Assembly: GCA_963753435.1 (NCBI GenBank)
Contig: CAVWCF010000002.1
Coordinates: 96,001-160,000, forward strand
Reading direction: 5' to 3'
DNA: 64,000 nt
DNA from: an uncultured Actinomycetota bacterium
GTDB taxonomy: Bacteria > Actinomycetota > Actinomycetes > CAVWCF01
Positions 43,861-59,119 of the stretch are shown one piece after another. The position numbers were made by a program, and so were the translations under genes. Numbering within the stretch: the first letter of the stretch is position 1; every line of letters starts with the position of its first letter. The notes under the pieces are model-generated. The model was not told the origin of the DNA, searched no databases, and worked only from the letters and a program-made list of their open reading frames with translations.

Positions 43861-45339
43861 TCAGTCGTCGGCCGCCAGCGAACGGGCCGCCTCGACCAGC
43901 GTGCGTACCGCCGCCCCGGTTCCGCCCTTGGGGTTGACCCCGTACGGTTCGCTGCCGTTCCAGGCCGGCCCGGCGATGTCCAGGTGCGCCCAGGCCTGAC
44001 CGGATGCGATGAACTCCTGCAGGAAGATGCCCGCCTGCAGCATGCCGCCGTTGCGATCGCCGATGTTGGCGATGTCAGCCACCTGCGAGTCCAGCCGCTT
44101 GCGCAGGTAGGCCGGCAGATCCATGTGCCACATCGATTCACCGGCGGTCGCCGCAGCCTGACCGAGCCGCTCGGTGAGGTCTGCGTCGTTGCTCATGAGC
44201 CCCGCGGTCCGCGGGCCGAGGGCCACTAGCGCGGCACCGGTCAGGGTCGCCACGTCGACGATGGCGTCGGGCTGCTCCTCCTGAGCCCGGACCAGAGCGT
44301 CGGCAAGGACCAGGCGACCTTCCGCGTCGGTGTTGAGGACCTCGACGGTGCGCCCGCCGTACGTGGTGAGGACGTCGCCGGGCCGCTGCGCGGTGTCCGA
44401 CGGCATGTTCTCCGCCATCGCGGCGAAGGTGGTCACGTTGACTGGCAGCCCTAGTCGCGCAACGGCCAAGGTGGCGGCGATGACCGCGGCGGCGCCGGCC
44501 ATGTCCGACTTCATCTCGTGCATGTTCGCGCCTGGCTTCAGCGAGATCCCGCCGGAGTCGAACGTGATCCCCTTGCCGACCAGGGCCAGGTGGCGCTTTG
44601 CGTCGGGGTGGCGGTAGGCCAGGCGCAGCAACCGAGGCGGCCGACTGGACCCTTGGCCGACGCCGAGGATTCCCCCGTAGCCGCCACCAGCAAGCTTCTT
44701 CTCATCGGTGATCTCCGCGGTCACCCCCGCGTCGACGGCCTGAGCGGCAGCGGAGTCGGCAAAGACCGCTGGCGGCAGATCGTTCGGCGGTGTGTTCACG
44801 AAGTCCCTTGCCGCCATCACGGCTTCGGCTACGACGCGTGCCTCGGCGAGTGCGTGCCGGGCGGCTGCGTCCTTGGCCAGCGACGTCCAGATCGTCACCG
44901 CGCCCAGGCCGGCCTTGTGCGCGCGCGCCGTGGACGACCGGTAGGCGCGAAACGTGTACGCACCAAGGACCGCGCCGGTCGCGATCGCGGCGACCGATTC
45001 CGGAGATTCCGCACCCAGTGCGAAGACGGCCCGTCGCCGCCCGGCCAGGGCCCGCGCAGCAGCAGCAGCGGCCCGGCGAAGAGAGTCGTCATCGGAGTCG
45101 GTGCCTACGCCGACGCAGACAACCACCGGCGCGGTCACCCCGGCACCGGATGGCAACTGCACAACCTCCTCGGCCTTGCCGGTCGCCTTCAGGGCGGCTG
45201 CCGCCTCGGCGATGGCCTTGCCGGTCCGGCCCAGGGCTGCGACCGGTTCGACACCGCCACGGGTGGGGCGCAGTGCGACGACTAGTGCGTCCGCCTTGGC
45301 GCGCAGGGGCGAATCGGCAGACAAGGAGATCGTGGTCAT
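43861..45339 (-). CDS. pepA: Leucyl aminopeptidase (M17)
   Basis: VGKGITFDSGG, MKSDMAG, NTDAEGRL, ATLTGA, HLDIAG. Confidence 0.95.
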   Translation of the reverse strand: MTTISLSADSPLRAKADALVVALRPTRGGVEPVAALGRTGKAIAEAAAALKATGKAEEVVQLPSGAGVTAPVVVCVGVGTDSDDDSLRRAAAAAARALAGRRRAVFALGAESPESVAAIATGAVLGAYTFRAYRSSTARAHKAGLGAVTIWTSLAKDAAARHALAEARVVAEAVMAARDFVNTPPNDLPPAVFADSAAAQAVDAGVTAEITDEKKLAGGGYGGILGVGQGSSRPPRLLRLAYRHPDAKRHLALVGKGITFDSGGISLKPGANMHEMKSDMAGAAAVIAATLAVARLGLPVNVTTFAAMAENMPSDTAQRPGDVLTTYGGRTVEVLNTDAEGRLVLADALVRAQEEQPDAIVDVATLTGAALVALGPRTAGLMSNDADLTERLGQAAATAGESMWHMDLPAYLRKRLDSQVADIANIGDRNGGMLQAGIFLQEFIASGQAWAHLDIAGPAWNGSEPYGVNPKGGTGAAVRTLVEAARSLAADD

Positions 45340-45380
45340 GATCGTCACCCTAGCCACGGCTGCGGGCTAGCGTCTTGGTC

Positions 45381-46526
45381 ATGACGAGCAGCGGCGATGA
45401 CACCGGTGCCCCGGCAACTGAGTCCGGCGGAGCCGCCCTGCGCAGCCCGATCCACCAGCAGCACGTGGACTCCGGGGCCAAGTTCGCGCCCTTCGCCGGT
45501 TGGGAGATGCCGCTTGAGTACGCCGGCGGCGGCGTATTGGCCGAGCACGCGGCTGTTCGCGAGTCGGTCGGCCTGTTCGACGTTTCCCACCTCGGCACCT
45601 TGGACGTGCGCGGAGCCGGCGCGCGGGCCTTCCTGGACACGCAACTGACCAACGACCTGAGCCGGCTGCAGCCGGGAGCCGCGCAGTACACGCTCATCTG
45701 CACCGAGGACGGTGGGGTTATCGATGACCTGATCGCCTACGTGTCGGCCGACTCCGAGGTGCGACTGGTGCCGAACGCCGCCAACTGCGCGGAGGTGCGG
45801 GATCGGCTGCGGCAGGCGGCGCCGAGCGGTGTGGAGGTGCTCGACCGGCACACCGAAACCGCGATCCTGGCGGTGCAGGGACCGGCATCGGCGCAGGTCC
45901 TACTGGCACTGGGTCTGGATCCGGACTTGGCCTACATGCGCTTCAACCAGCAGCAGTTCGGCGATGCGACGGTGAGCGTCTGCCGGTCCGGGTACACGGG
46001 GGAGCCGGGGTTCGAACTGATCGCCCCAACTGATGCAGCCGCCGGGCTGTGGGAAGCGCTTCTGCGCGCGGCGGCGAACGTCGGGGGGCGCCCTGCCGGC
46101 CTCGGTGCTCGCGACACCTTGCGCACCGAGATGGGGTACCCGCTGCATGGACAGGACCTGTCGCTGGAAATCTCCCCGGTGCAGGCCGGGTTGTCGTGGG
46201 CGGTCGGTTGGGACAAGCCTGAGTTCGTAGGGCGGGCGGCGCTTGTCGCGGAGCGCGCGGCCGGCCCGCGGCGCCGCTTGCGCGGGATCCGGCTCACCGA
46301 CTCCGGGGTTCCGCGGCCGGGAATGGCGGTGCTGGCGGCCGACGGCGGTCGCGAAGTCGGCGTGCTGACCAGTGGCACGTTTTCGCCGACCCTGCGGGCC
46401 GGGATCGGGTTGGCCCTGTGCGACGCGGGAGTGGACGTAGGCGACCAGGTCCTGGTCAGCGCGCGAGGACGACAACTGGCCGCGGCGGTGGTGAAGCCCC
46501 CGTTCGTGAAGACGTCGCCGCGCTGA
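45381..46526 (+). CDS. gcvT: Glycine cleavage system aminomethyltransferase T
   Basis: FAGWEMPLEY, GLFDVSHLG, RSGYTGEPGFE, GLGARDTLRTEMG. Confidence 0.95.
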   Translation: MTSSGDDTGAPATESGGAALRSPIHQQHVDSGAKFAPFAGWEMPLEYAGGGVLAEHAAVRESVGLFDVSHLGTLDVRGAGARAFLDTQLTNDLSRLQPGAAQYTLICTEDGGVIDDLIAYVSADSEVRLVPNAANCAEVRDRLRQAAPSGVEVLDRHTETAILAVQGPASAQVLLALGLDPDLAYMRFNQQQFGDATVSVCRSGYTGEPGFELIAPTDAAAGLWEALLRAAANVGGRPAGLGARDTLRTEMGYPLHGQDLSLEISPVQAGLSWAVGWDKPEFVGRAALVAERAAGPRRRLRGIRLTDSGVPRPGMAVLAADGGREVGVLTSGTFSPTLRAGIGLALCDAGVDVGDQVLVSARGRQLAAAVVKPPFVKTSPR

Positions 46527-46594
46527 GCACTGACTACGGCCGAGCCCCCGAGGCCAGCGGGATCGCGGACGCACCCGCCACCTGGGCCGCCTGA

Positions 46595-47665
46595 TCAGCG
46601 GTCACTGACCCCCGCCTCGTCGAAGGTCGCCATGTCGGCCAACGTCGCGGCTGCCGCTCGCAGAATCGGCACCGCCAGCAACGCTCCGGTGCCTGCACCC
46701 AGGTTCAGGCGCAGGTCCGTGAGCGGCTCCAGCCGAAGCCGCTGCAGGGCCACGGAGTGCGCGGGTTCGGTCGAACGGTGTCCAGCGGCCCACCAGTGCC
46801 TGGCCCGGAAGGACACTCGGTCCGCGAGCAGAGCAGCGGCACCGGACACGACCCCGTCCAGCAGTACCGGGGTGCGGCGGACAGCGGCCTGCAGCAGGAA
46901 GCCGGTCATGGCGGCGATATCGGCGCCGCCGACGGTGGCCAGCAGTTGCAGCGGGTCGCCGCGGTGCGGACGGCCCCGACGGGCCGCGTCTCGTACCGCT
47001 GCAGCCTTGCGCATCCAACCCGCGTCGTCGATGCCCGTTCCGCGGCCGATCAGGTCCGGCAACTCGCCCCCACCGAGCAGGAATATGAGTGTGGTGGCCG
47101 GGGTGGTGTTGCCGATGCCCATGTCTCCGATCAGCAGCAGATCTGCGCCCGCGTCGATCAGTTCGTCGGCGATGCTGATGCCGTGGCTGACCGCTAGTTC
47201 GGCCTCGGCCGAGCTCATCGCATCAGTGGACCGGATGTCGCCGCTGCCCTTGCGGACCCGCCATCTGGTCACGTCGTCCGGAACGGACTTGCCGACGTAG
47301 TCGGTATCCACCGCGAGGTCGCGGACGTTGACATTGACACCGGCTACCGCAGCGAGCACGTTGGCGGCGGCCCCGCCGGCCAGGAAGTTGCCCACCATCT
47401 GGGCCGTTACCTCCGGCGGATAGGCCGAGACGCCGCCGGCGGCGACCCCGTGATCCCCGGCGAAGATGACGAGTTCGGCCCGCTGCGGGGGCGGCGCCGG
47501 GCACTGGCCGCGAACACCGCACCACCATGCGGCGAGGTCCTCCAAGCGGCCCAGCGCACCGGCGGGCTTGGCCAACTGTTGCTGGCGCACGAGGGCCTGC
47601 TCCGCGAAGCGCTCATCCGGCGCGACTATTGCGTCGAAGGCGTTCAGGTCCAAGGGTGCGCTCAC
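46595..47665 (-). CDS. cobT: Nicotinate-nucleotide--dimethylbenzimidazole phosphoribosyltransferase
   Basis: KPAGALGRLE, FAGDHGV, GDMGIGNTT, GRGTG, LLDG; LGAGTGA replaces the usual LGEGTGA. Confidence 0.9.
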   Translation of the reverse strand: MSAPLDLNAFDAIVAPDERFAEQALVRQQQLAKPAGALGRLEDLAAWWCGVRGQCPAPPPQRAELVIFAGDHGVAAGGVSAYPPEVTAQMVGNFLAGGAAANVLAAVAGVNVNVRDLAVDTDYVGKSVPDDVTRWRVRKGSGDIRSTDAMSSAEAELAVSHGISIADELIDAGADLLLIGDMGIGNTTPATTLIFLLGGGELPDLIGRGTGIDDAGWMRKAAAVRDAARRGRPHRGDPLQLLATVGGADIAAMTGFLLQAAVRRTPVLLDGVVSGAAALLADRVSFRARHWWAAGHRSTEPAHSVALQRLRLEPLTDLRLNLGAGTGALLAVPILRAAAATLADMATFDEAGVSDR

Positions 47666-47702
47666 TGCCCCGATCCTCTCGTCAGATCGCGAGTCTGGGG
47701 CA

Positions 47703-48494
47703 TCACCGCACCGCGACGAACTCAGGCCGCGCATCGAACGCGGCGCGGCGCGCCGTTCGCCGCAGCGTCCGCAGGACCGGACCGGTCAGGAACGCCAGCA
47801 GGATGGCGTTACCGAGTGCGCGTGGGATGTCGAAGCCGAGGGAGGTGACCAAGCAGAACGCGATGAACCGGGCGAGGTTTTCCGTGACCGGGTCGCCCGC
47901 CACGAAACTGATGCCGGAGTCCGCGCCCGCGATGAACGGCCAGAACCAGAGGTTGAGCAGGAACCCGTAGGCAAGTCCGGCGATGAGCCCGTACGACACC
48001 AGCAGCCACGTCTCCGTCCGGCCCCGGGCCGGTGGCAGCAGTCCGGCGAACAGGCCGATCCAGGCCGCGCCCAGCATTTGAAACGGCAGCCAAGGGCCGA
48101 TGCCGCCGGTGATCAGTGCCGAGGCGAACATGCCGAGCGCGCCGAGCAGGAATCCAAAGCCGGGGCCGAGCGCGCGCCCACCGAGGATGACCACAACGAA
48201 CATGGGCTGAAAGCCGGTCGCCCCGCCGCCCAGCGGGCGCAACGCTGCGGCGACGGCCGCGAGGACGCCGAGCAGGGCGACCGCCTTGGCATCCAACGAG
48301 CCCTCACTCAGGTGGGCGATGAGCACGGCAAGCAGCAACGGGAGCAGCAGGGCGAACAGCAAGGGTGCATCGGTCGAGTGCGCGAGGTCACTGCCCGGCT
48401 CGGCCAAGAAGGGCCAGCCGAACGCGAGCAGTCCGATGGAACTGACCAGGATCAGGGTGCCGACGCTGCGCGAGGGCATCCGCAGAGCGTTCAT
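47703..48494 (-). CDS. ECF transporter S component
   Basis: ALLGVL, LGGRALGPGFGF, GGIGPWLPFQM, GFDIPRA. Confidence 0.88.
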   Translation of the reverse strand: MNALRMPSRSVGTLILVSSIGLLAFGWPFLAEPGSDLAHSTDAPLLFALLLPLLLAVLIAHLSEGSLDAKAVALLGVLAAVAAALRPLGGGATGFQPMFVVVILGGRALGPGFGFLLGALGMFASALITGGIGPWLPFQMLGAAWIGLFAGLLPPARGRTETWLLVSYGLIAGLAYGFLLNLWFWPFIAGADSGISFVAGDPVTENLARFIAFCLVTSLGFDIPRALGNAILLAFLTGPVLRTLRRTARRAAFDARPEFVAVR

Positions 48495-50104
48495 GTCGCC
48501 GGCTCCAGCGCCCGCTGCACCTCAAGCGGAGTCAGCCATCGCCCGGGGTGCAGCACCTTGGCGGTCTGCGGCGCGTACGCGGGGGATGCCAGCACCACGT
48601 CGCGGGCCGCCCCGTCCGTGACCACTTCGCCATCGGCGAGGATCACCACGCGGTCGACTGCTTCGGCTACCAACTCGACGTCATGCGTCGACAACAGCAC
48701 CGCGGTTCCCTTGTCAGCCCGTTCGCGCAACACCGACACCAGGCGCGACTTGGTCGAGTAGTCCAACCCACGGGTCGGCTCGTCGAGCAGCAACAGGGAT
48801 GGCTCGGCGACCAGGACCACGGCTAGGGCCACGGCCAGCCGCTGCCCTTCGGAGAGGTCGCGCGGGTGTTGCTGCAGGTCGATGTCCGGCGCCAACTCTT
48901 GCAGCAGTCGCAGCGTGGCACCCGCCGCCACGGCCGCGTCGGAATCGGCGGCGGCACACTCGTTCGCCACCGTTTCGGCCCAGAGCAGCACCGCAGGGTC
49001 CTGCGGGATCAGCCCAACGTGTGACAACAGCTGACGGCCGCGCAGTTGCCTCGGGTCTTGGTTGTCGACCCGGGCTGAACCCGCTGAAGGCGAGACCAGC
49101 CCGGTCAGCAGATTCAGCAGAGTGGATTTGCCGGCGCCGTTTCTTCCCATCAACGCCACAACCTCGCCGGGGAAGAGCGACAGGTCCACATCGCGCAGTG
49201 CGACCAGGTGCCCGTAGCGGACCGAGGCCCGGTTCAGTTGAGCGGCCGGGGGACCGTCGGCCAACGCCTTGGTCGGTGGATCGACGGTCTGCGTCAGGCG
49301 CTGGCGCAGATCGGCCGAGAAGCGGCGGGCGTCCCGCACCGAAACCGGGACGGGTGACCAGCCGGCCACCTGAGCCAAGCGCACTACTGGCGGGGCCACT
49401 GGGGACTGCGCCAACACGTCCGCCGTGGCGCCGATGACCGGCGCCAGCCCGGCGCCGGGCAGGAGGATGACGCGGTCGGCGAACTGGGCGACGCGCTCCA
49501 GGCGATGCTCCGCCACCAGGACCGTCAGCCCAAGGTCGCTGACCAGGCGCTGCAGCGCCGCGAGCACCTCTTCGGCCGCACCCGGGTCCAGTGCGCTGGT
49601 TGGCTCATCCAGAACCAGCACGGACGGATGCGCGGCAAGCACGGCAGCGATGGCCACTCGTTGCCGCTGCCCGCCGGACAACCCCCGCAGGGGGCGGGCC
49701 CGGAGGTCCGCCAGGCCGAGTAGGTCGAGGTTCTCCTCAACCCGCCTGCGCATGGTCGCCGGGTCCACGCCGAGCGATTCCATGCCGTAGGCGATCTCGT
49801 CTTCGACCGTGTCCGTGACGAAGGCGGCGGCGGGGTCCTGGGGTACGACGCCGACGACGTCGGCCAGATCCCGCGGCCGGTGCTTGGCCGTGTCCCGTCC
49901 GGCGACCAGGACGCGACCGCTGAGGCGGCCACCGGTGAAGTGCGGCACATGACCGTTCACGGCACCGAGCAGGGTTGACTTGCCGGCCCCGGTAGGACCG
50001 ATGACCAGGCACAACTCGCCTTCGGCGATCACGAAGTCGGCGTGGGCCAGGGCCGGCGCCGAACTGTCGGAGTAGGTCACGGAGACGTCTTCGAATCGGA
50101 TCAC
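48491..50104 (-). CDS. ECF transporter fused double ATPase
   Basis: GPTGAGKS/LSGGQ/LDEPT and GRNGAGKS/LSEGQ/LDEPT; GTG start overlaps the upstream stop. Confidence 0.92.
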   Translation of the reverse strand: MIRFEDVSVTYSDSSAPALAHADFVIAEGELCLVIGPTGAGKSTLLGAVNGHVPHFTGGRLSGRVLVAGRDTAKHRPRDLADVVGVVPQDPAAAFVTDTVEDEIAYGMESLGVDPATMRRRVEENLDLLGLADLRARPLRGLSGGQRQRVAIAAVLAAHPSVLVLDEPTSALDPGAAEEVLAALQRLVSDLGLTVLVAEHRLERVAQFADRVILLPGAGLAPVIGATADVLAQSPVAPPVVRLAQVAGWSPVPVSVRDARRFSADLRQRLTQTVDPPTKALADGPPAAQLNRASVRYGHLVALRDVDLSLFPGEVVALMGRNGAGKSTLLNLLTGLVSPSAGSARVDNQDPRQLRGRQLLSHVGLIPQDPAVLLWAETVANECAAADSDAAVAAGATLRLLQELAPDIDLQQHPRDLSEGQRLAVALAVVLVAEPSLLLLDEPTRGLDYSTKSRLVSVLRERADKGTAVLLSTHDVELVAEAVDRVVILADGEVVTDGAARDVVLASPAYAPQTAKVLHPGRWLTPLEVQRALEPAT

Positions 50105-51207
50105 ACCGGCACCTCCTCTCGGCGTTCCACTGCCAGGGGGAGGTTCTGGGGTCGCGGTGGCGCCAGCCAAACCGGTAGTAGCCCGAGGAGGAGACCGAAA
50201 GCTGCGACCGGCGGCAACGTCGGCCACGTCGGCGGGTCCGTGATCGGCGTCAGCCCGGGGGTCGCAGCCACCGCCAAGGCGGTCATGGTGATGGCGGCGG
50301 CGGCTCCGCTGGCTGTCACACCCCACTCCGGCCACGACCAGGGATCTGGCCGGTACCGGGTCCGCAGTTGCCGCGTCCGGCCAAGGCCGAGCCCGGCTAC
50401 CGCTGTTGCGGCCCCGAGCGCGAGCAGCGGGAGTCCGAGCGGGCCGGGGGATCCGGCGTCCAGCAGGCCGTAGATGCCGACCAGAACGCCCACGAGGCCG
50501 ACCAGTGTCAGCACTGCCGCCACCCGATTGGCGCGCGGTGAGTCCGCCCTGGTGCGTCCGTACCCGCGGGAGTCCATCGCCGCGGCCAGCGCCAGGGACC
50601 GTTCCAGTGCGGCGGTCAGCACCGGCAATGCCGCCGCGGCGGCACCGCGTAGCCCGCGGTCGTTGCGTCCGCGCAGCCGGCGGGCCTTGCGCACCTCCCC
50701 AAGTTCCATGATCAGCAGGGGAGTGACGGAGAGAGCGACGACGACAGCAACGCCGACCTCGTACAGCGATGCCGGCAGGCTCTTGAGCAGCCGCCGTGGG
50801 TCGGCCAACGAATTCGCTGCTCCGACGCATGCCAGGACTGCGAACAGACGCAGACCGTCGTAGACGGCGGCCAGCAACTGTGGGGCGGTTACCGGTCCGC
50901 CAAGTCGCACACCGGCGGCCCAGTCCGGAAGCGGGATCTCCGGCAATTCCAGGAGCACGGAGCCGACGGCCGACGCCCCGAAGACAACTTCGAAGACCAC
51001 GCGCAGGACGACGACCACCACGCCTAGTCGTAGGAAGGCTCCGAAGGATCGACCCCAGGCGGCTGGGCTGCGGTGTACGGAGACCACGACCGCGACGACT
51101 CCTACGGCCAGCGCCAGCAGCAGCGGGTTCGTCGTTCGGCTAACTGCTGCGGCCATGCCGATGGCCCACAGCCACCAGGCGCCGGCGTGCAGCGGTCGTG
51201 GGTTCAC
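50101..51207 (-). CDS. ECF transporter transmembrane T component
   Basis: LHAGAWWLWA, ARRLRG, AMDSRGYG motifs. Confidence 0.88.
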   Translation of the reverse strand: MNPRPLHAGAWWLWAIGMAAAVSRTTNPLLLALAVGVVAVVVSVHRSPAAWGRSFGAFLRLGVVVVVLRVVFEVVFGASAVGSVLLELPEIPLPDWAAGVRLGGPVTAPQLLAAVYDGLRLFAVLACVGAANSLADPRRLLKSLPASLYEVGVAVVVALSVTPLLIMELGEVRKARRLRGRNDRGLRGAAAAALPVLTAALERSLALAAAMDSRGYGRTRADSPRANRVAAVLTLVGLVGVLVGIYGLLDAGSPGPLGLPLLALGAATAVAGLGLGRTRQLRTRYRPDPWSWPEWGVTASGAAAAITMTALAVAATPGLTPITDPPTWPTLPPVAAFGLLLGLLPVWLAPPRPQNLPLAVERREEVPV

Positions 51208-51220
51208 CAGGTGCGTCGCT

Positions 51221-52138
51221 TCATCGGGCGCGCCTGCGCGCATAGGCGGCGCCGCCGAGCAGCGCGGTCAGCAGCGCCACGGTCACCAGCAGTCCGGCCG
51301 GGGAGCCGGTGTCGGCTGGTGCCCGCGATGCCGTTGGGTAGGCACCGAGCGCCTCGGCTGCGTCGACCTGCTCGTCCGTTGCGCGACCGGCGGCGGAATC
51401 GGTCGGTGCGGTCGGCGCCGAAGCGGCGGCACTGCTAGTCGGCGTCCCTGGGGTCGCCGCGCCGGGCTCCTGCACCGCCGGATCGCCGGTGCTCGCGGGC
51501 GTGCTCGGCGAGTTTCGGCCCGAACTGGAATCCGCCGCCTCGCTGTTCGCGGCGGTGCGGTTGTTGGGTTGCGCCCCGGCGGCGGGGGAGGTCGGCTTGG
51601 GGGTAGGGCTGGGTTGCGACTGGACCACGACGTCGCCGCATTCTCTGCTCGGGTAGCCGTTGAGGCCACCGATCAGACCGCTGGAGCAGGCGCGCACCGT
51701 GGCGACCTTGCTGAGGACGTCCAAGCCGGTGGCGCTGGTGGCGGCGGTCACGCAGGCTTTGACCGGGGTGTCTGGGGTGCCCGGGGGAGTCTCTCCCGGT
51801 GGCGCGTCAGAGGTGGAGCCGTAGTCGATGACTACCGCGACCCGCTTCTGGCCCTCGAGGGCCTGTTCACCCCGGCAGATCTGGCTGAACAGCCCGGACG
51901 CGGTCAGACGCGGCGGGTCATCCCCGCCATTCGTCGAGACTCCGAATCGCCACCCCTCGACGGAACCATCCGCTGGGCGGCTGGACGGTCCCACTGGCGC
52001 GAAGGACCAGCTGTCGGCTCCCGGCGTCACCTTCCAGTACTGCCAGTACCGGTACGCCGTCGCGGCCTCCGCCGCAGGGGTCGCCCATACGGCAACTGCC
52101 GTCGCGAAGGCGGCGGTGGCAGCCAACAGCCGCTTCAC
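51221..52138 (-). CDS. SCO2322-like secreted protein with C-terminal membrane anchor
   Basis: Signal peptide; AYRYWQYW, FAPVG..DGSVEGWRF, KRVAVVIDYG, GYP..EC; Pro/Thr linker; TM followed by RRRAR. Confidence 0.8.
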   Translation of the reverse strand: MKRLLAATAAFATAVAVWATPAAEAATAYRYWQYWKVTPGADSWSFAPVGPSSRPADGSVEGWRFGVSTNGGDDPPRLTASGLFSQICRGEQALEGQKRVAVVIDYGSTSDAPPGETPPGTPDTPVKACVTAATSATGLDVLSKVATVRACSSGLIGGLNGYPSRECGDVVVQSQPSPTPKPTSPAAGAQPNNRTAANSEAADSSSGRNSPSTPASTGDPAVQEPGAATPGTPTSSAAASAPTAPTDSAAGRATDEQVDAAEALGAYPTASRAPADTGSPAGLLVTVALLTALLGGAAYARRRAR

Positions 52139-53379
52139 TGCCGCGAACTCCAGCGCCGGGAGATCAGCACCAGCGCCACCCCGATGACCAGAAGGGCCAG
52201 TGCCACCCAGATCTGTTCGAGCACGGCCCCCGGCAGACCCGAGTCAGCCAGCTCGGTCGGAGTGGCCGCACCGGCGGTTGGGGTGGCATCCGTTGATGTG
52301 TCGGGAGTCGTCGGTGACGCGCCGGGTGGCGTCGGCGCAGCCGTGTTCAACGTTGCCTGAAGTTGGGCAGTGAGGTCGGCGCCCGCGTCCGGGTCGGACA
52401 CGCCGAGGGCGACGCCGGCCAGCAGGTAAAGCGCAGCCGCTCCGGGCCGGACCTGGCCGGAACTGTCGGTGATCGCACCGGGAAGGTCCGCGAGCATTGC
52501 CGCGTAGATCTCGGTGGCCTTGGTCTTGCCGGCGTTGGCGGCAGCGAAAGACATGACGGCGAAGGCGCGCTGGTCGACAGAACTGAAGTTGGCCAGTGGC
52601 TGGTTCTCCAGCCAGTCCGCGGCGGCGAGCGCCGGGTCGGCGAACGGGCCCGGGCACGTGAGGTCCGCAACAGTGTCCGCAAAGGCGACCGGCGCCGGCA
52701 CGGGATACCCGCTGCCAGCCGCGGCCGGCAATGCCTGCACGGTTGCCAGCAGGTCGGCCTGGCCGGAGTACGGGGCGATGAACCCGCCGATGTCCAGCGG
52801 GTCCGCTGAGCAGTCGGCCTGCTGTGCGATCAGACCGGAAGCCGTGTCCTGGCCGCTGAACGAGGTCGGATCGAGTCCCAGCGAGATCAATGCGCTGACA
52901 GCGAGACCGGAGGAGTTGGGGTCGGCACCGAAGCCGGGTTGGTACTGGAAGCCACCGGCCCCGTCCAGGACGGTGGCGAGGAAACCGGCTGCGTCGCTGG
53001 CCGCGTCGGTCTCGCCGACCGCCGCCAATGCCATGGCCGCAAGTGCGGTCAAGTTGGAGTCCTCGGCGGTGAACAGCGCGGGGTCGGGGGTGCACGCCGC
53101 GTCCAGCGCGAATCCCATGAATCCGCCGTCGGGGCACTGCTGCTCCAGCAGCCACGCAACTGCCGCGGGATCAACGCTGCCGCCGACGGCATCCAGCGCC
53201 AAGATGGAAAGGGACTGCCGGAACGTGCCGTCGTAGGTGGGGTCCTGGACCCCGTACATACCCACCTTGGCCGGGTCCTCGGTGGTCGCCGACAGCGCGG
53301 GCGCTGCTAGGGCGAATGCTGCGGTGATGCCGGCGGTGACTCCGATCGCGATTCCTCGCGCGATCACTGGAGCGGACAA
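52135..53379 (-). CDS. Prenyltransferase/squalene-oxidase-repeat (alpha/alpha barrel) surface protein with sortase-like tail
   Basis: Signal peptide; WLLEQQCPDGGF, DSNLTA, GGFQY..DPNSSG; LADSG + TM + RR tail. Confidence 0.75.
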   Translation of the reverse strand: MSAPVIARGIAIGVTAGITAAFALAAPALSATTEDPAKVGMYGVQDPTYDGTFRQSLSILALDAVGGSVDPAAVAWLLEQQCPDGGFMGFALDAACTPDPALFTAEDSNLTALAAMALAAVGETDAASDAAGFLATVLDGAGGFQYQPGFGADPNSSGLAVSALISLGLDPTSFSGQDTASGLIAQQADCSADPLDIGGFIAPYSGQADLLATVQALPAAAGSGYPVPAPVAFADTVADLTCPGPFADPALAAADWLENQPLANFSSVDQRAFAVMSFAAANAGKTKATEIYAAMLADLPGAITDSSGQVRPGAAALYLLAGVALGVSDPDAGADLTAQLQATLNTAAPTPPGASPTTPDTSTDATPTAGAATPTELADSGLPGAVLEQIWVALALLVIGVALVLISRRWSSRQ

Positions 53380-53438
53380 ACTTCCCCCTCAAGGAAACGG
53401 GCTGCGGTTTCGCCGAGCGCCCGTTGCCACACGACAAA

Positions 53439-53463
53439 CCCTCGATGCCACAGGCATCGAGGG
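53439..53463 (-). terminator. Intrinsic terminator in riboswitch leader
   Basis: CCCTCGATGCC-3nt-GGCATCGAGGG followed by TTTGT on the minus strand, ~60 nt before the first start codon. Confidence 0.65.
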
Positions 53464-53524
53464 CGGGGTGTGGGTCTGTTGACCCGGCTCCCCCCGCAGT
53501 CCTCGACGGAATTACAGGAGCCAC

Positions 53525-53640
53525 TGATGCGCTCGGTTGGTATCCCGGCTTGCCGCGTGGCACCCAAGGGTGCGCGGCCTACGGTTGCGGGTCAGCGCCG
53601 GATTCCGACCGGCTTCCCCAACTCCGAGCATCTGTAGTTG
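53525..53640 (-). ncRNA. Cobalamin riboswitch
   Basis: Minus strand GGGGAAGCCGGTCGGAATCCGGCGCTGACCCGCAACCGTA ... AAGCCGGGATACC (B12 box); upstream of the ECF operon and cobT. Ends approximate. Confidence 0.9.
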
Positions 53641-53702
53641 TGGCGCGAACTGTCCCACACGGGTTGTTGGGGGGTCAAAGCACCGACACCTAGGCTGATG
53701 GC

Positions 53703-53912
53703 ATGTCTTGGTCTTGGCGGTATGAGAAGTCGGACGGCTCGGAAGTGACCGAAGCGGCTTTGGGCCGGTTCACCTTTCCGGCGCAGGCTGATGCCGAGAC
53801 CTGGATCGGGGAGAACTGGCAGGACCTCTTGGCTCAAGGCGTGGACGCCGTGGTGCTGCTGGAGGGTGACCGGGTCGTCTACGGGCCGATGAGCCTGCAC
53901 CCGGCGCAGTAG
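53703..53912 (+). CDS. Small conserved actinobacterial protein
   Basis: WSWRYE..F..QADAETWIGE.W..VYGPMSL; TAGGCT 6 nt before ATG. Confidence 0.75.
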   Translation: MSWSWRYEKSDGSEVTEAALGRFTFPAQADAETWIGENWQDLLAQGVDAVVLLEGDRVVYGPMSLHPAQ

Positions 53913-53913
53913 C

Positions 53914-54912
53914 TCACCAGCGCGGACTCATCTCCTCGGTCCGGGCCGGGTCGGCCTCGATGACGTCGGCCAGCACCGCGTCGATCTGCGCGCACAACTC
54001 ATCGGACAACTCCACCTCGGTCGCGGCGACGTTGTCGGTCACCTGTTCCGGGCGTGTGGCGCCGATGATCGCCGCGGACACGTTGTCGTTGCGCAACACC
54101 CAGGCCAGGGCCAACTGGGCCATGCTCGCCCCGGCGGCTTCGGCGATAGGTCGGAGGCGGTCCACCGCCACGAGCACCTCGTCGCGCAGCATGCCCCTGA
54201 TGAAGGTGCCGCCGGTCTCGTCGGTGGCCCGCGATCCCGGGGGGGCCGGTTCGCCCGGTCGGTATTTGCCGGTGAGGATCCCCTGGGCCAGTGGGCTCCA
54301 GACGATCTGACCGACGCCCAGTTCGCGGCAAGTCGGGACCACTTCGCCCTCGATGACCCGATACAGCATCGAGTACTGCGGCTGGTTGCTGATGAGCCGG
54401 TCGAAACCCATCTCGTCGGCGATCCGGTGGGCTTCCCGGATCTGCGCCGCGGTCCATTCGCTCACCCCGATGTACAGGACCTTGCCCGAACGCACCAGGT
54501 CTTCGAAGGCGCGCAGCGTCTCGACCAGCGGGGTGGAATGGTCGAAGCGATGTGCCTGGTAGAGGTCCAGGTAGTCGGTCTGCAGTCGCTTCAGCGAGGC
54601 ATTGCAGGACTCCACGATGTGCTTGCGGCCCAGCCCGCGGTCGTTGGGTCCCGGTCCGGTGGGCCAGAAGACCTTGGTGAAGATCTCCAGCCCTTCGCGG
54701 CGCTGACCGCTCAGCGCTCGGCCCAGCACTTCCTCGGCCTTGGTCGCGGCGTACACGTCGGCGGTGTCGAAGGTGGTGATGCCGGCGTCAAGGGCTGCGT
54801 GCACGCAGGCCTTCGCGGCGTCCTCTTCGACCTGCGAGCCGTGTGTGACCCAGTTGCCGAACGCGATCTCGGATACGGAAAGGCCGCTGCGGCCAAGACG
54901 GCGGTGCTTCAT
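53914..54912 (-). CDS. Aldo/keto reductase (Kv-beta-like)
   Basis: LGRSGL, FDTADVY, TKVF, DLYQAHR, WSPLAQG. Confidence 0.92.
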   Translation of the reverse strand: MKHRRLGRSGLSVSEIAFGNWVTHGSQVEEDAAKACVHAALDAGITTFDTADVYAATKAEEVLGRALSGQRREGLEIFTKVFWPTGPGPNDRGLGRKHIVESCNASLKRLQTDYLDLYQAHRFDHSTPLVETLRAFEDLVRSGKVLYIGVSEWTAAQIREAHRIADEMGFDRLISNQPQYSMLYRVIEGEVVPTCRELGVGQIVWSPLAQGILTGKYRPGEPAPPGSRATDETGGTFIRGMLRDEVLVAVDRLRPIAEAAGASMAQLALAWVLRNDNVSAAIIGATRPEQVTDNVAATEVELSDELCAQIDAVLADVIEADPARTEEMSPRW

Positions 54913-54980
54913 GCGGCGACGCTAGCGAAGCGCGGTGTCACCCGCGAACCGGCGCTGGCCAACCGCGGAGCGTCGCCGGT

Positions 54981-55565
54981 TCAGTCGGGGCGCTGTCCCC
55001 GCTTGACCTGCGGCTTGGGAACGCGCAGGGAGCGCATCTGCAGTCCACGCAAGACGGCGTAGGTGGTGGCTCCCTTGCGGTCGGCCTTCTCCGGCCAGCG
55101 GCGCTTCAGGTCCGACCGCAGTCGCAAGCCCAGGACGGTGGAGTCGACCACGACCAGCAAGGTCAACAGCAACCAGCCGTTGACGGTGAGAACTCGCAGC
55201 GCGGGGTTCGGGATCAGGCCAAGCAGGATGACGGCGATCGCTGCGGGCAGGAAGAACTCACCCATTGAGAAGCGGGAGTCCACCCAGTCGCGGGTGTAGC
55301 GACGTACCGGGCCCTGGTCTCGTCGCGGCAGGTACTTCTCTTCGCCGGCGAGCATCGCCTCGCGGGCTTTCGCCTGGGCGGCTCGAGCCTTGGCACGCTC
55401 GGCCTTACGGGCCTGCTTGGGGTCAGCGGCCACCTTCGCGCGCGCCTTGCGGGCGGCCTCGGCTTCTTTCCGGCTGGGCGTCGGGCGGCCTTTGCCCTGC
55501 GCTGGCCCGGACTCTTGTACTTCGCCGTTGGACACCGCTGTCGCCTTCTCCTGCGCTTCACTCAT
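54981..55565 (-). CDS. DUF3043 family membrane protein
   Basis: GKGRPTPSRKEA, RDQGPVR..RDWVDSR, R.PKPQV. Confidence 0.85.
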   Translation of the reverse strand: MSEAQEKATAVSNGEVQESGPAQGKGRPTPSRKEAEAARKARAKVAADPKQARKAERAKARAAQAKAREAMLAGEEKYLPRRDQGPVRRYTRDWVDSRFSMGEFFLPAAIAVILLGLIPNPALRVLTVNGWLLLTLLVVVDSTVLGLRLRSDLKRRWPEKADRKGATTYAVLRGLQMRSLRVPKPQVKRGQRPD

Positions 55566-55665
55566 CGCCGACAGCGTAACCGCGCCCCACCAGCGAGCCG
55601 ACCGAACGCATCCGGATTGACTAGGCTCGGTCTCACATAGTCGACGATGCCGGAAGGGGCCGACG

Positions 55666-56418
55666 ATGGGTCTTTGGCAGCGCTTCAAAATGATCTTCCA
55701 GTCGAAGACCAGCGCGGCGCTGGACCGCGCCGAGGACCCGCGACAGACCCTCGACTACTCCTATGAGAAGCAACTGGAGTTGTTGCAGCAGGTGCGCCGT
55801 GGTGTCGCCGACGTCGCTACCAGCCGCAAGCGTCTGGAGTTGCAGGTCGATTCGCTGGAGCAGAAGGCGGCCAAGTTGGAGGGCCAAGCGCGGCAGGCGT
55901 TGGCCATGGGACGTGAGGACCTGGCCCGGGAGGCGTTGGCGCGCCGTTCCGGCCTCAACCAGCAGATGACCGACCTGCACACCCAGTTGGCCGGGCTGCA
56001 GGCGGAGGAAGAACGTCTCACCCAGGCCGCGCAGCAACTCCAGGCCCGCGTGGAGCAGTTCCGCACCCGCAAGGAGACGCTGAAGGCGACGTATACGGCG
56101 GCCGAGGCGCAGACGAAGGTGTCCGAGGCGTTCGGCGGCCTGTCCAAAGAGCTTTCCGACGTGGGCATGGCCGTTCAGCGGGCGGAGGACAAGACCGCGC
56201 AGATGCAGGCCCGCGCCGGCGCGCTGGACGAGTTGTTCGCCAGTGGTGCGCTGGAGGATGTCAGCGGATCGAGCAAGGACGACCTGACCCTGGAACTGGA
56301 GCGGATGTCCAGCGCCGGCGAGGTCGAGAACGAGTTGGCACGGCTGCGCGGTGAGCTCCCGGCCGCCGAGGCGCCGAAGGCGGTTGAACCGGGCGAGGCG
56401 GATTCGCCGTCGAACTGA
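55666..56418 (+). CDS. pspA: PspA/IM30 family protein
   Basis: LDRAEDPRQTLDYSYE, REDLAREAL, ARAGALDEL; coiled coil. Confidence 0.9.
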   Translation: MGLWQRFKMIFQSKTSAALDRAEDPRQTLDYSYEKQLELLQQVRRGVADVATSRKRLELQVDSLEQKAAKLEGQARQALAMGREDLAREALARRSGLNQQMTDLHTQLAGLQAEEERLTQAAQQLQARVEQFRTRKETLKATYTAAEAQTKVSEAFGGLSKELSDVGMAVQRAEDKTAQMQARAGALDELFASGALEDVSGSSKDDLTLELERMSSAGEVENELARLRGELPAAEAPKAVEPGEADSPSN

Positions 56419-56419
56419 G

Positions 56420-57316
56420 GTGAAAACTCGCTTCGCCCCTGATCGGGGCCTCAGTGCCCGGATGGGCTTGACGCTATTCGTCCTCGGCCTGCTGTACGTC
56501 GTCGCGATGGCCGTGCTCATCTGGTTCGGCTTTCCGGCCGTCTTCGTTGTCGGAATCGCCGCGGTGGTGCTGGTCGGCCAGTGGTACTACTCAGACCGCA
56601 TCGCGCTCTATGCCATGCGCGCCCAGGACGTTACGCCGGAGCAGGCCCCGGAGCTGCACGCGGTAATCGACCGGTTGTGCGCGATGGCCGACATGCCTAA
56701 GCCACGCGTGACTATTGCCCAATCGGACGTCCCGAATGCGTTCGCAACCGGTCGCTCACCCGAGAATTCAGCCGTCTGCGTCACCACCGGTCTGCTGCGC
56801 CGGCTCAACCGGGACGAGGTGGAGGCGGTCTTGTCGCACGAGTTGTCGCACATCGCCCACCGGGACGTGACGGTGATGGCGGTGGCGTCGTTCGTAGGCG
56901 TCCTGGCCGGCGTGATGACCCGCTCGTTCCTCTGGGGTGGCATGTACCGACGCAGCGGCAACCAGAACACCGCGTTCGCGCTGCTAGCGGTGCTGGTTGT
57001 CAGCGTCATCGTCTACATCGCGAGCTTCCTGCTGATCCGTGCGCTGGGCCGTTACCGGGAGCTGGCCGCCGACCGTGCGGGCGCACTGCTTACAGGCCGG
57101 CCCTCGCATCTGGCCAGTGCCCTGCAGCGAATCCACGGGGAGATGGGCCAGATCCCCACCGAGGACTTGCGCCGTGCCGAGCCGGTCAACGCGTTCTTCT
57201 TCGCCCCCGCCTTGGCCGGTGGAGTCAGCCTGGCTTCGTTGCTGTCTACGCACCCGCCGTTGGATCGTCGGCTGGAGAACCTGGCCAAGGTGGCCGCGGA
57301 GTTGGGCCAGGCCTGA
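56420..57316 (+). CDS. htpX: HtpX zinc metalloprotease
   Basis: PNAFATG, HELSH, RELAAD, STHPP. Confidence 0.92.
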   Translation: MKTRFAPDRGLSARMGLTLFVLGLLYVVAMAVLIWFGFPAVFVVGIAAVVLVGQWYYSDRIALYAMRAQDVTPEQAPELHAVIDRLCAMADMPKPRVTIAQSDVPNAFATGRSPENSAVCVTTGLLRRLNRDEVEAVLSHELSHIAHRDVTVMAVASFVGVLAGVMTRSFLWGGMYRRSGNQNTAFALLAVLVVSVIVYIASFLLIRALGRYRELAADRAGALLTGRPSHLASALQRIHGEMGQIPTEDLRRAEPVNAFFFAPALAGGVSLASLLSTHPPLDRRLENLAKVAAELGQA

Positions 57317-57320
57317 CTAG

Positions 57321-57893
57321 ATGGGCTTCTGGGACGCGGTTCTGGGTCGACGCGCGCAACCGCGGCCCGACTTGGACGCCCTGTTCGCCCTACCGAGCGC
57401 TGCCATCGGGTTGGAGGTCGCCGGCTATCGGCCCACCGGGGTTGCCGCCGTCGGTTTCCGTGCCCCGACGGGGGAGGCGTTTCGGGCGCTGGAGGCCGAG
57501 GTGACCCAGTTGCTGGACGCCGACGGCGGTCCGGCGACCGAACGCACCAGCGACGAGTTCGGCTACACGTGGTTGCTGTGCCGCACCGAACCGCCGGACT
57601 TGGGCACGCTCGTGAGTGATCTGCACGCGGTGCACACCAGTCTCATCGACGACGGGTTCGGATCGTTCCTGTTGGCCGCAGTCGTCGCCTTCCGAGGCCC
57701 GGATGACCAACCGCTGCTCCTGATCTATCCGCACAAGTCCGGGCGCTTCTACCCGTTCGCCCCGCGTGCGGATAAACGCCGGGACAACGTGGTGGAACTG
57801 CAGGTTCGCGATCTGCTGCAGCACGAAATGCCGCTCGAGCCGGACCTGACCCGCTGGTTCGCCCTGTGGGGTGCGCCCGGAAGCGCGGCCTAG
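57321..57893 (+). CDS. PspA-associated protein B (PspAB)-like
   Basis: LDALFALPSAA, DEFGYTW, GRFYPFAP, EPDLTRWF.LWGAP; follows pspA-htpX. Confidence 0.75.
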   Translation: MGFWDAVLGRRAQPRPDLDALFALPSAAIGLEVAGYRPTGVAAVGFRAPTGEAFRALEAEVTQLLDADGGPATERTSDEFGYTWLLCRTEPPDLGTLVSDLHAVHTSLIDDGFGSFLLAAVVAFRGPDDQPLLLIYPHKSGRFYPFAPRADKRRDNVVELQVRDLLQHEMPLEPDLTRWFALWGAPGSAA

Positions 57894-57922
57894 AACGGCG
57901 CCACCTGGCCCCCGCAAGCACG

Positions 57923-59119
57923 TCAGTCCTTCGCGGCAGTGTCTCCAGGCAGGGCCAGCATCCGGTCCAGTGCGACCCGGGCCCAGTGCGCGGTGTCTTC
58001 GGCAACGGTGATGCGGTTGACCACTCGACCCTCGGCCAGGGACTCCAGCGCCCAGACCAGGTGCGGCAGGTCGATGCGGTTCATGGTCGAGCAGTAGCAG
58101 ACGGTGCGGTCCAGGAACACAACCTGCTTGTCCGGGTTGTCCTGGGCCAGCCGCTTGACGAGGTTCAGTTCGGTGCCGACCGCCCATGCGGTGCCGGGTT
58201 CGGACGCCGACACCGTCTTGATGATTTTCTCGGTGCTGCCGATGGCATCGGCCTTCAGGACGACCTCGTGACGGCACTCCGGGTGGGCGATGACGCGCAC
58301 CCCCGGGATGCGTTCGCGAACCTCGTCCACCGCGTCCGCAGTGAACCGGCCGTGAACTGAGCAGTGGCCGCGCCAGAGCAGCATCTTCGCCTGCCCCAGT
58401 TGATCGGCGGTTAGGCCGCCGTCCGGCTTGTGCGGGTTGTAGACGACGCAGTCGTCCAAACCCATGCCCAGTTCGAGCACGGCGGTGTTCCGGCCGAGGT
58501 GCTCATCGGGCAGGAACAGGACCCGCTCACCTTGTTCGAACGCCCATTCCAGCGCGCGCTGGGCGTTCGACGACGTGCAGATGGTGCCGCCGTTCCTGCC
58601 CGTGAAGGCTTTGATGTCCGCGGACGAATTCATGTACGTGACCGGAATCGTGGACTGCGCGAGGCCAGCGCGTTCCAGCACGGCCCAGGCGTCTTCGACC
58701 TGGTTGATCGCCGCCATGTCCGCCATGGAGCAGCCAGCCGCCAGGTCGGGCAGCACGACCTGCTGCCGGTCGCTGGTGAGGATGTCTGCGGACTCGGCCA
58801 TGAAGTGCACCCCACAGAAGACGATGAACTCCGCGTCGGGGCGTGCGGCGGCCTGCTGGGCCAATTTGAACGAGTCGCCGGTCACATCGGCGAACGCGAT
58901 GACCTCGTCACGTTGGTAGTGGTGCCCAAGCACGAAGACCCGGTCGCCAAGCGACTCCTTGGCCCGGCGGGCGCGTTCGACCAGATCCGGGTCGGACGGG
59001 GCCGGCAGGTCGCCGGGGCACTCGACGCCACGCTCGCTGTTGGGATCGGATTCTCGACCGAGCAGCAGCAAGGCCAACGGCGTCGCCTGGACACCGTCTG
59101 GGAGGTCGGTCTGGGTCAC
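57923..59119 (-). CDS. nadA: Quinolinate synthase
   Basis: GHHYQ, GDS, CGVHFMAE, AGCSMA, YMNS, CSVH, HPEC, C.TM. Confidence 0.95.
   Translation of the reverse strand: MTQTDLPDGVQATPLALLLLGRESDPNSERGVECPGDLPAPSDPDLVERARRAKESLGDRVFVLGHHYQRDEVIAFADVTGDSFKLAQQAAARPDAEFIVFCGVHFMAESADILTSDRQQVVLPDLAAGCSMADMAAINQVEDAWAVLERAGLAQSTIPVTYMNSSADIKAFTGRNGGTICTSSNAQRALEWAFEQGERVLFLPDEHLGRNTAVLELGMGLDDCVVYNPHKPDGGLTADQLGQAKMLLWRGHCSVHGRFTADAVDEVRERIPGVRVIAHPECRHEVVLKADAIGSTEKIIKTVSASEPGTAWAVGTELNLVKRLAQDNPDKQVVFLDRTVCYCSTMNRIDLPHLVWALESLAEGRVVNRITVAEDTAHWARVALDRMLALPGDTAAKD

Follow-up and report, generated by a model that had tools for sequence, protein, structure and literature searches.

A circularly permuted transcobalamin beta-type domain and a predicted permuted (alpha/alpha)6 barrel encoded with an ECF importer in a cobalamin riboswitch operon of an uncultured actinobacterium

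Here, we present an analysis of a cobalamin riboswitch operon in a 64,000-nucleotide stretch of DNA (the window) from an uncultured Actinomycetota bacterium (contig CAVWCF010000002.1, positions 96,001 to 160,000). Downstream from the riboswitch, the operon encodes two putatively exported proteins, here called P1 and P2, the transmembrane (T), ATPase (A and A') and S components of an energy-coupling factor (ECF) transporter, and CobT. The main finding, which is well supported, is that P2 carries a domain of the transcobalamin-beta/DUF4430 type with its two halves swapped, i.e., a circular permutant; P1, as predicted by its structural model, is a circularly permuted (alpha/alpha)6 barrel. Coordinates refer to positions in the window, and all parts of the operon lie on the minus strand, as follows.

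53518..53643, minus strand: cobalamin riboswitch aptamer, RF00174 (45.1 bits versus a gathering score of 31.5; E 4.2e-8)
52135..53379, minus strand: P1, a SCO2321-type, putatively exported (alpha/alpha)6 barrel protein of 414 amino acids with a Pro/Thr linker, LADSG, a transmembrane helix and RR
52714..53262, minus strand: segment B of the P1 barrel, C-terminal in unpermuted relatives and N-terminal in P1 (profile uB, E 1.5e-50)
52348..52638, minus strand: segment A of the P1 barrel, N-terminal in unpermuted relatives and shifted to the C-terminus in P1 (profile uA, E 1.2e-10)
51221..52138, minus strand: P2, a SCO2322 family protein of 305 amino acids with a long Pro/Ser/Thr/Ala linker, a transmembrane helix and RRRAR
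51866..52063, minus strand: first half of the P2 domain, YWQYW...DGSVEGW, corresponding to the C-terminal half of unpermuted and DUF4430-type domains (HH probability 98.9)
51626..51859, minus strand: second half of the P2 domain, RVAVVID...GLDVL...GLIGGLNG, corresponding to the N-terminal half of the transcobalamin beta domain (model residues 69-146 versus 4kkj, 2bb6, 2pmv and 5no0)
50101..51243, minus strand: EcfT, a CbiQ-like transmembrane component (PF02361)
about 48491..50104, minus strand: fused EcfA-A' ATPase (best matches are ECF ATPase models)
47703..48494, minus strand: ECF S component (PF12822, 46.6 bits versus a cut-off of 30.7)
46595..47734, minus strand: cobT (TIGR03160, above its cut-off; the likelier start is GTG at 47665)

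As in one operon, the stop codon of one gene overlaps the start codon of the next between P1 and P2, T and A, and A and S, and the overlap between P2 and the T gene is 23 nt long. The genome has no second RF00174 match, and the aptamer, as in other cobalamin-regulated operons, lies upstream of the genes and is conserved in relatives; S, T and two ATPase domains are encoded together, as in group I ECF transporters with a dedicated module. No promoter or terminator consensus was found in 46300-54000. An earlier note on this DNA had described the riboswitch, two secreted proteins, the ECF T, AA' and S components and cobT, and the RF00174 match, open reading frames and family matches bear out this layout, with cobT falling just beyond the interval 47703..53640 that the note covered. 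The note's YW.YW...W.FA.VG...DG.VEGW segment and C-terminal anchor of P2 are likewise present, as YWQYW...WSFAPVG...DGSVEGW and a hydrophobic segment at residues 281-299. The signal peptides of P1 and P2 were judged by eye.

P2 belongs to the SCO2322 family NF040672 (137.2 bits versus a cut-off of 85) and also matches PF28005. Direct sequence searches of P2 against Pfam and the PDB returned no transcobalamin, and PF14478 (DUF4430) matched neither P2 nor anything else in the genome. In many other Actinomycetota genomes, only half of the NCBIfam SCO2322 model is matched, and the halves occur there in the opposite order. A profile of the N-terminal half of P2 matched the C-terminal half of a profile of these unpermuted relatives with a probability of 98.9; the unpermuted profile matched an alignment of 28 PF14478 proteins (probability 91.6, 96 columns); P2 residues 69-145 matched the N-terminal half of the DUF4430 alignment (probability 80.5); and the DUF4430 alignment led to haptocorrin (E 3.6e-6), 3u7z (E 9e-5) and the transcobalamin beta domain (E 5e-3). 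Structures were predicted for P1 and P2, each alone. The P2 model (pLDDT 94.6) has a hairpin insert (E123-125/E131-134), and its segment 69-146 could be aligned with the beta domains of haptocorrin, transcobalamin (two entries) and intrinsic factor, in each case over the N-terminal half, with a root-mean-square deviation of 2.2-2.9; these transcobalamin-family chains make up four of the ten chains with Z of at least 2 among 48,161. Based on these profile and model comparisons, P2 is very likely homologous to the beta domain of transcobalamin and qualifies, as a circular permutant, as a transcobalamin-type SLBB domain. The half swap is also the likely explanation for the failure of Pfam and Foldseek to recognize it.

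The region at 51743-51763 (domain residues 126-132) deviates in P2 in that position 132 is a glycine, where 78 of 78 aligned relatives have a cysteine, and a cysteine is found six residues earlier, which suggests a shifted disulfide partner. A sequencing error was considered and rejected because P0042 shares the shift.

To survey related operons, GTDB genomes were scanned with P2, giving 543 related stretches, of which the best 80 were kept. EcfT directly follows P2 in 80 of these 80 loci, with the ATPase present in 79 and the S component in 78, the misses being due to cuts at contig ends. Of the 80, 52 have P1 ahead of P2, and in P1-less loci, the riboswitch stands immediately before P2; thus, the beta gene is constant and the barrel optional in these operons. 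A core motif of the riboswitch lies upstream of the first gene in 45/52 loci with P1 and in 27/27 without (72/79 altogether; one locus was too short), both strands of the 80 loci being otherwise free of matches, and Rfam at its gathering score confirmed a riboswitch in 12 of the 21 loci scanned (5/9 and 7/12), including two of the seven motif misses. The occurrence of the cluster in other actinomycetes, asserted in the earlier note, is therefore borne out across GTDB genomes, and the clusters do not mostly lack riboswitches, which that note had named as an outcome that would count against it. In the Planktophila-type (acI) loci L043, L048, L052 and L068, a bare beta domain of ~180 amino acids, with no C-terminal anchor, is encoded between the riboswitch and EcfT. 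One typical actinobacterial operon (L033) was found on a 12-kb contig labelled Rubrivirga, which is probably mis-binned.

P1 occupies the same operon position as members of the SCO2321 family NF053823, against which it scores 128.3 bits, below the cut-off of 300 (E 3e-37); with its P1 and P2 genes, the operon is one of the SCO2321/SCO2322 type known from Streptomyces. Its structural model is confident (pLDDT 95.7). Segment B holds residues that are invariant by column conservation (D46, D50, R54, D107, N109 and S156). At the DxDD site, P1 has DSNLT and the P1 profile D-S-N-S-T, versus D-V-D-D-T in the squalene-hopene cyclase 1gsz; DxDD is the catalytic acid motif of the cyclases, and its replacement argues against cyclase chemistry in P1. 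Terpene cyclase activity was rejected for P1 because of this lost motif. Direct sequence searches of P1 against Pfam and the PDB returned no transcobalamin, two profiles of unpermuted barrels led to cyclases (the second also to complement TED domains) and not to transcobalamin alpha, and the fused protein of locus L122 (below) matched nothing as a lone query. P1 is a putative counterpart of transcobalamin alpha.

The tail of P1 had been described in the earlier note as sortase-like. LADSG (residues 377-381), a hydrophobic segment (389-407) and RR are indeed present, and the genome has two sortase genes; however, NF058582 scores 14.9 bits versus a cut-off of 27, and the motif is found in none of the 52 P1 orthologues from the related loci, so that sortase anchoring was rejected as a family trait and the LADSG motif is lineage-specific. 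In most P1 orthologues, the C-terminus is formed by a plain membrane helix, and nine of the 52 have no anchor.

The two proteins agree in their domain order. Using profiles from unpermuted relatives, the permuted order was found in 53 of 53 P1 sequences next to permuted beta genes. Of 20 loci with an unpermuted beta gene, 16 have an unpermuted barrel beside it (three have no barrel and one is unclear), and in a second set of this kind, the same holds for 27 of 30 (two are cut at contig ends and one is a repeat of L128); the 27 include the unpublished genome G339. No locus mixing permuted and unpermuted genes was seen, although both sets consist of the best scorers of their own type and may miss intermediates. 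In an EcfT tree (quick method, 80 rows), the backbone was unresolved, and a single origin of the permutation was neither shown nor excluded. One genome carries both types: in addition to its permuted operon (L009), it has an unpermuted one (L128; G282:C1:3646500-3658700) in which the barrel gene lies behind S and a divergent pair of riboswitch motifs is present.

Barrel and beta domains also occur in single chains. L122 encodes a barrel, a beta domain and cell-wall-binding repeats in one protein, with another, free beta gene and T-AA'-S downstream, while the protein in L196 consists of signal, barrel and beta only; both loci stand behind Rfam-confirmed cobalamin riboswitches, and both fusions have the alpha-then-beta order. 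Among individual proteins, P0263 is a barrel-beta-transmembrane fusion, whereas P0250 and P0296 both have the order beta-beta-barrel; P0218, which seems to be a merger of two genes, was left out of the fusion count. Thus, the one-chain organization of a whole transcobalamin, which is divided between two genes in the operon here, is present in L122, L196 and P0263. P1-like barrels also adjoin true DUF4430 genes in L160, L161, L207, L208 and L212, of which L207, L208 and L212 sit behind riboswitches. As leads only, Atlas returned a cluster with PF01497 in 100% and PF28005 in 92% of its members and, for the L122 fusion, placed a transcobalamin-1 cluster seventh (score 0.85). Two further arrangements were observed: P0239 (483 amino acids) consists of three beta-type repeats of the unpermuted kind and lacks a barrel match, and in L177 (G507:C1:677397-680780), riboswitch motif, barrel and beta are followed by another riboswitch motif and another barrel gene.

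The genome (98% complete) encodes MetH and methylmalonyl-CoA mutase-type proteins and gave no match to CobN, PF01497 (BtuF-type), CbiC or CobS; lacking a CobS match, the cell would need complete cobamides. The operon is the only candidate B12 importer found in this genome. Of the 301 genomes of the class that were sampled, 158 have a relative of the beta gene, including 14/14 of the Streptomyces-type family f3, and such genes are present in 129/186 CobN-negative versus 29/115 CobN-positive genomes; these counts are descriptive because kin are not independent, and they include a few unpublished genomes.

Based on these observations, we consider it probable that the operon encodes a dedicated ECF importer under riboswitch control, in which tethered P2 binds cobalamin, P1 serves as an optional lid and the vitamin is handed over to the S component. 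Its parts deserve different degrees of confidence: we regard it as very likely that the operon imports a corrinoid, as quite likely that P2 binds one and as moderately likely that P1 clamps the ligand together with P2. According to this model, low B12 would de-repress the operon through the riboswitch. P1 and P2, whose tails are evident in the sequence, would then be exported, stabilized by disulfides and displayed on flexible linkers. Isolated human transcobalamin beta binds cobalamin, and the separated transcobalamin halves assemble only with cobalamin (PMC5599065); by analogy, the P2 beta domain may bind first and the P1 barrel may join only if ligand is present, an order that would explain the persistence of beta-only operons. 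The unlinked halves would allow the sandwich to reopen and the vitamin to pass to S, a hand-over that we infer from gene linkage alone, and the T-AA' module would flip S inward as in the general ECF mechanism. It is doubtful, and we propose it only tentatively, that the clamp, its two halves permuted together and set on separate tethers, is widespread in actinobacteria as a ligand-assembled, reversible and obligatory extracellular binding protein of the ECF importer, reduced to a single beta domain without an anchor in Planktophila (acI), which abounds in fresh water, and that it is the main route by which these bacteria take up B12.

Several observations weigh against this model. For P2, the structural Z scores are low (2.5-2.7), below that of Cmr2 (3.8), and weak on their own, because a sequential aligner sees only half of a small domain; Foldseek with the P2 model gave nothing at E of 0.001 or below, with transcobalamin 7qbe at rank 46 (E 7.4); and the alignment of unpermuted beta domains on its own found neither DUF4430 nor transcobalamin in the PDB and Pfam. 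For P1, the nearest relatives are terpene cyclases by sequence (E 1e-25 to 1e-33) and, together with other barrels, by fold (Z 21-22); transcobalamin alpha lay outside the top 50 in three fold searches and was not significant in P1-type profile searches, intrinsic factor reaching E 0.68 at best; and PF01122 matched in 0/201 genomes of the phylum, but the controls were silent too. The pair is not obligatory, since P1 is missing from 28 of the 80 operons, and no P1 orthologue was found elsewhere in ten of ten searched genomes with P1-less operons, several of which are incomplete metagenome-assembled genomes. The ECF S component had no solved relative by phmmer. Finally, ECF-CbrT of Lactobacillus delbrueckii transports cobalamin when purified alone, arguing that helpers are no general need (PMC5997447), and the only related operon tested by deletion, that of Latilactobacillus sakei, affected haem uptake (bioRxiv 10.1101/864751). 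Accordingly, the earlier proposal that P1 and P2 are the alpha and beta halves of a split clamp is largely right for the beta half and plausible but unproven for the alpha half: P2 matches four transcobalamin-family chains over half a domain, by way of a circular permutation that the earlier note missed, while P1 has no transcobalamin alpha among its significant or top matches.

An unlikely but not negligible alternative is that P2, with or without P1, is a corrinoid-binding reservoir or sponge at the surface that raises the local level or keeps B12 from competitors and does not pass it directly to S. A reservoir role has been claimed for BtuJ1, S components bind their substrate directly, ECF-CbrT works without helpers (PMC5997447), and some beta genes are separated from the ECF genes or part of different fusions (L127, L130 and the PF01497-PF28005 cluster); however, P2 immediately precedes EcfT in every one of the 80 loci and is retained even in the streamlined genomes of Planktophila. 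We give slightly less credence still to the idea that P2 is the binder and P1 acts independently, either binding a different form of corrinoid, or serving as a scaffold, or working as an enzyme that descends from terpene cyclases or prenyltransferases. Its dispensability in 28/80 operons and the class II terpene cyclases as its nearest solved relatives would fit. Yet the P1 profile has D-S-N-S-T where squalene-hopene cyclase has its catalytic motif, D-V-D-D-T; the barrel is fused to a beta domain in several genomes; the nine anchorless orthologues could be retained at the cell only through a partner; and both genes share the same order state in every scored locus. Finally, a tetrapyrrole such as haem might be the cargo, which has been argued for L. 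sakei Lsa1836-1840, where deletion of the operon cut haem uptake 5- to 8-fold at 5-40 uM (bioRxiv 10.1101/864751). This would agree with the lack of any PF01497 binding-protein match in the genome but is very improbable given the cobalamin riboswitch here and in nearly all related loci, the B12 enzymes in a genome in which biosynthesis genes were not found, and the failure of hemin to compete in the case of L. delbrueckii CbrT (PMC5997447).

The favoured reading, a tethered P2 feeding a cobalamin importer, has precedents. Burroughs et al. 2007 (PMC1796856) predicted bacterial transcobalamin-like SLBB (DUF4430, PF14478) proteins with alpha/alpha toroids to be B12 scavengers; as here, exported SLBB domains are fused to or encoded beside a toroid, in operons with CbiO/CbiQ-like genes and in bacteria that do not synthesize B12. 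The systems they describe differ in belonging to low-GC Gram-positives, planctomycetes and euryarchaea, and P2 does not match PF14478; the string "permut" does not occur in the article text, nor "SCO232" in its supplements, which list proteins by gi number. Verplaetse et al. (bioRxiv 10.1101/864751) modelled L. sakei Lsa1839 as transcobalamin beta and Lsa1840 as alpha, scavenging for S. Like the operon here, Lsa1836-1840 encodes ECF S, AA' and T with two separate exported proteins; in contrast, haem import is argued for it, and the preprint does not contain the word riboswitch. By its published description, the L. sakei domains were found directly by HHpred, whereas both are permuted here, and many of the operons related to the one here lack the alpha gene. 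Transcobalamin, haptocorrin and intrinsic factor of animals share the beta-grasp beta domain and the (alpha/alpha)6 barrel partner, and the fused relatives L122 and L196 also share their alpha-then-beta order; however, the animal proteins are single soluble chains imported by receptors, as opposed to two tethered, permuted chains beside an ECF importer. ECF-CbrT (PMC5997447) resembles the proposed importer in the ECF-type uptake of cobalamin and cobinamide and differs in its shared group II module, its independence of helpers and the lack of a phmmer match to the S component here. In acI genomes, Kang et al. 2017 (PMC5301498) described a riboswitch-led ECF module as a putative cobalamin transporter; the portion of that article available to us does not mention the beta gene.

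A bacterial transcobalamin-like scavenger beside ECF genes is thus already published for Firmicutes, and the idea is not new in kind, which limits the surprise. What is new here is the actinobacterial branch, the double permutation and the beta-only systems. Literature searches found no paper on the function of SCO2321 or SCO2322 or on the permutation, although Rodionov et al. 2009, on ECF transporters, and subscription papers may name the operon. P2 is a member of NCBIfam SCO2322_fam and Pfam PF28005, and P1 scores below the cut-off of SCO2321_fam, names that give no function; our findings provide a fold and a testable function for these two unannotated families and bear on the competition of soil and freshwater actinobacteria for B12. 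The clamp occurs naturally in fused, split, permuted and beta-only versions, which lend themselves to two questions, namely whether binding proteins outside the cell are used by ECF importers and by what means a ligand is let go by a tight transcobalamin-type binder.

cobT was rejected as a conserved member of the operon, since it follows S in only five of the 80 related loci. It is present here although the genome search gave no cobS; it may be a remnant, or it may act in lower-ligand activation together with a partner that was not recognized. By translation, the flanks at 43861-46526 and 53914-59119 resemble genes for leucyl aminopeptidase, GcvT, an aldo/keto reductase, PspA-like and HtpX-like proteins and quinolinate synthase, and several of these genes recur next to the operon in relatives. 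Lastly, L169 (G000:C1:1074126-1074434) has a B12-binding-like domain in an open reading frame with a weak match to the helix-turn-helix of CarH and possibly encodes a B12 photoreceptor regulator.

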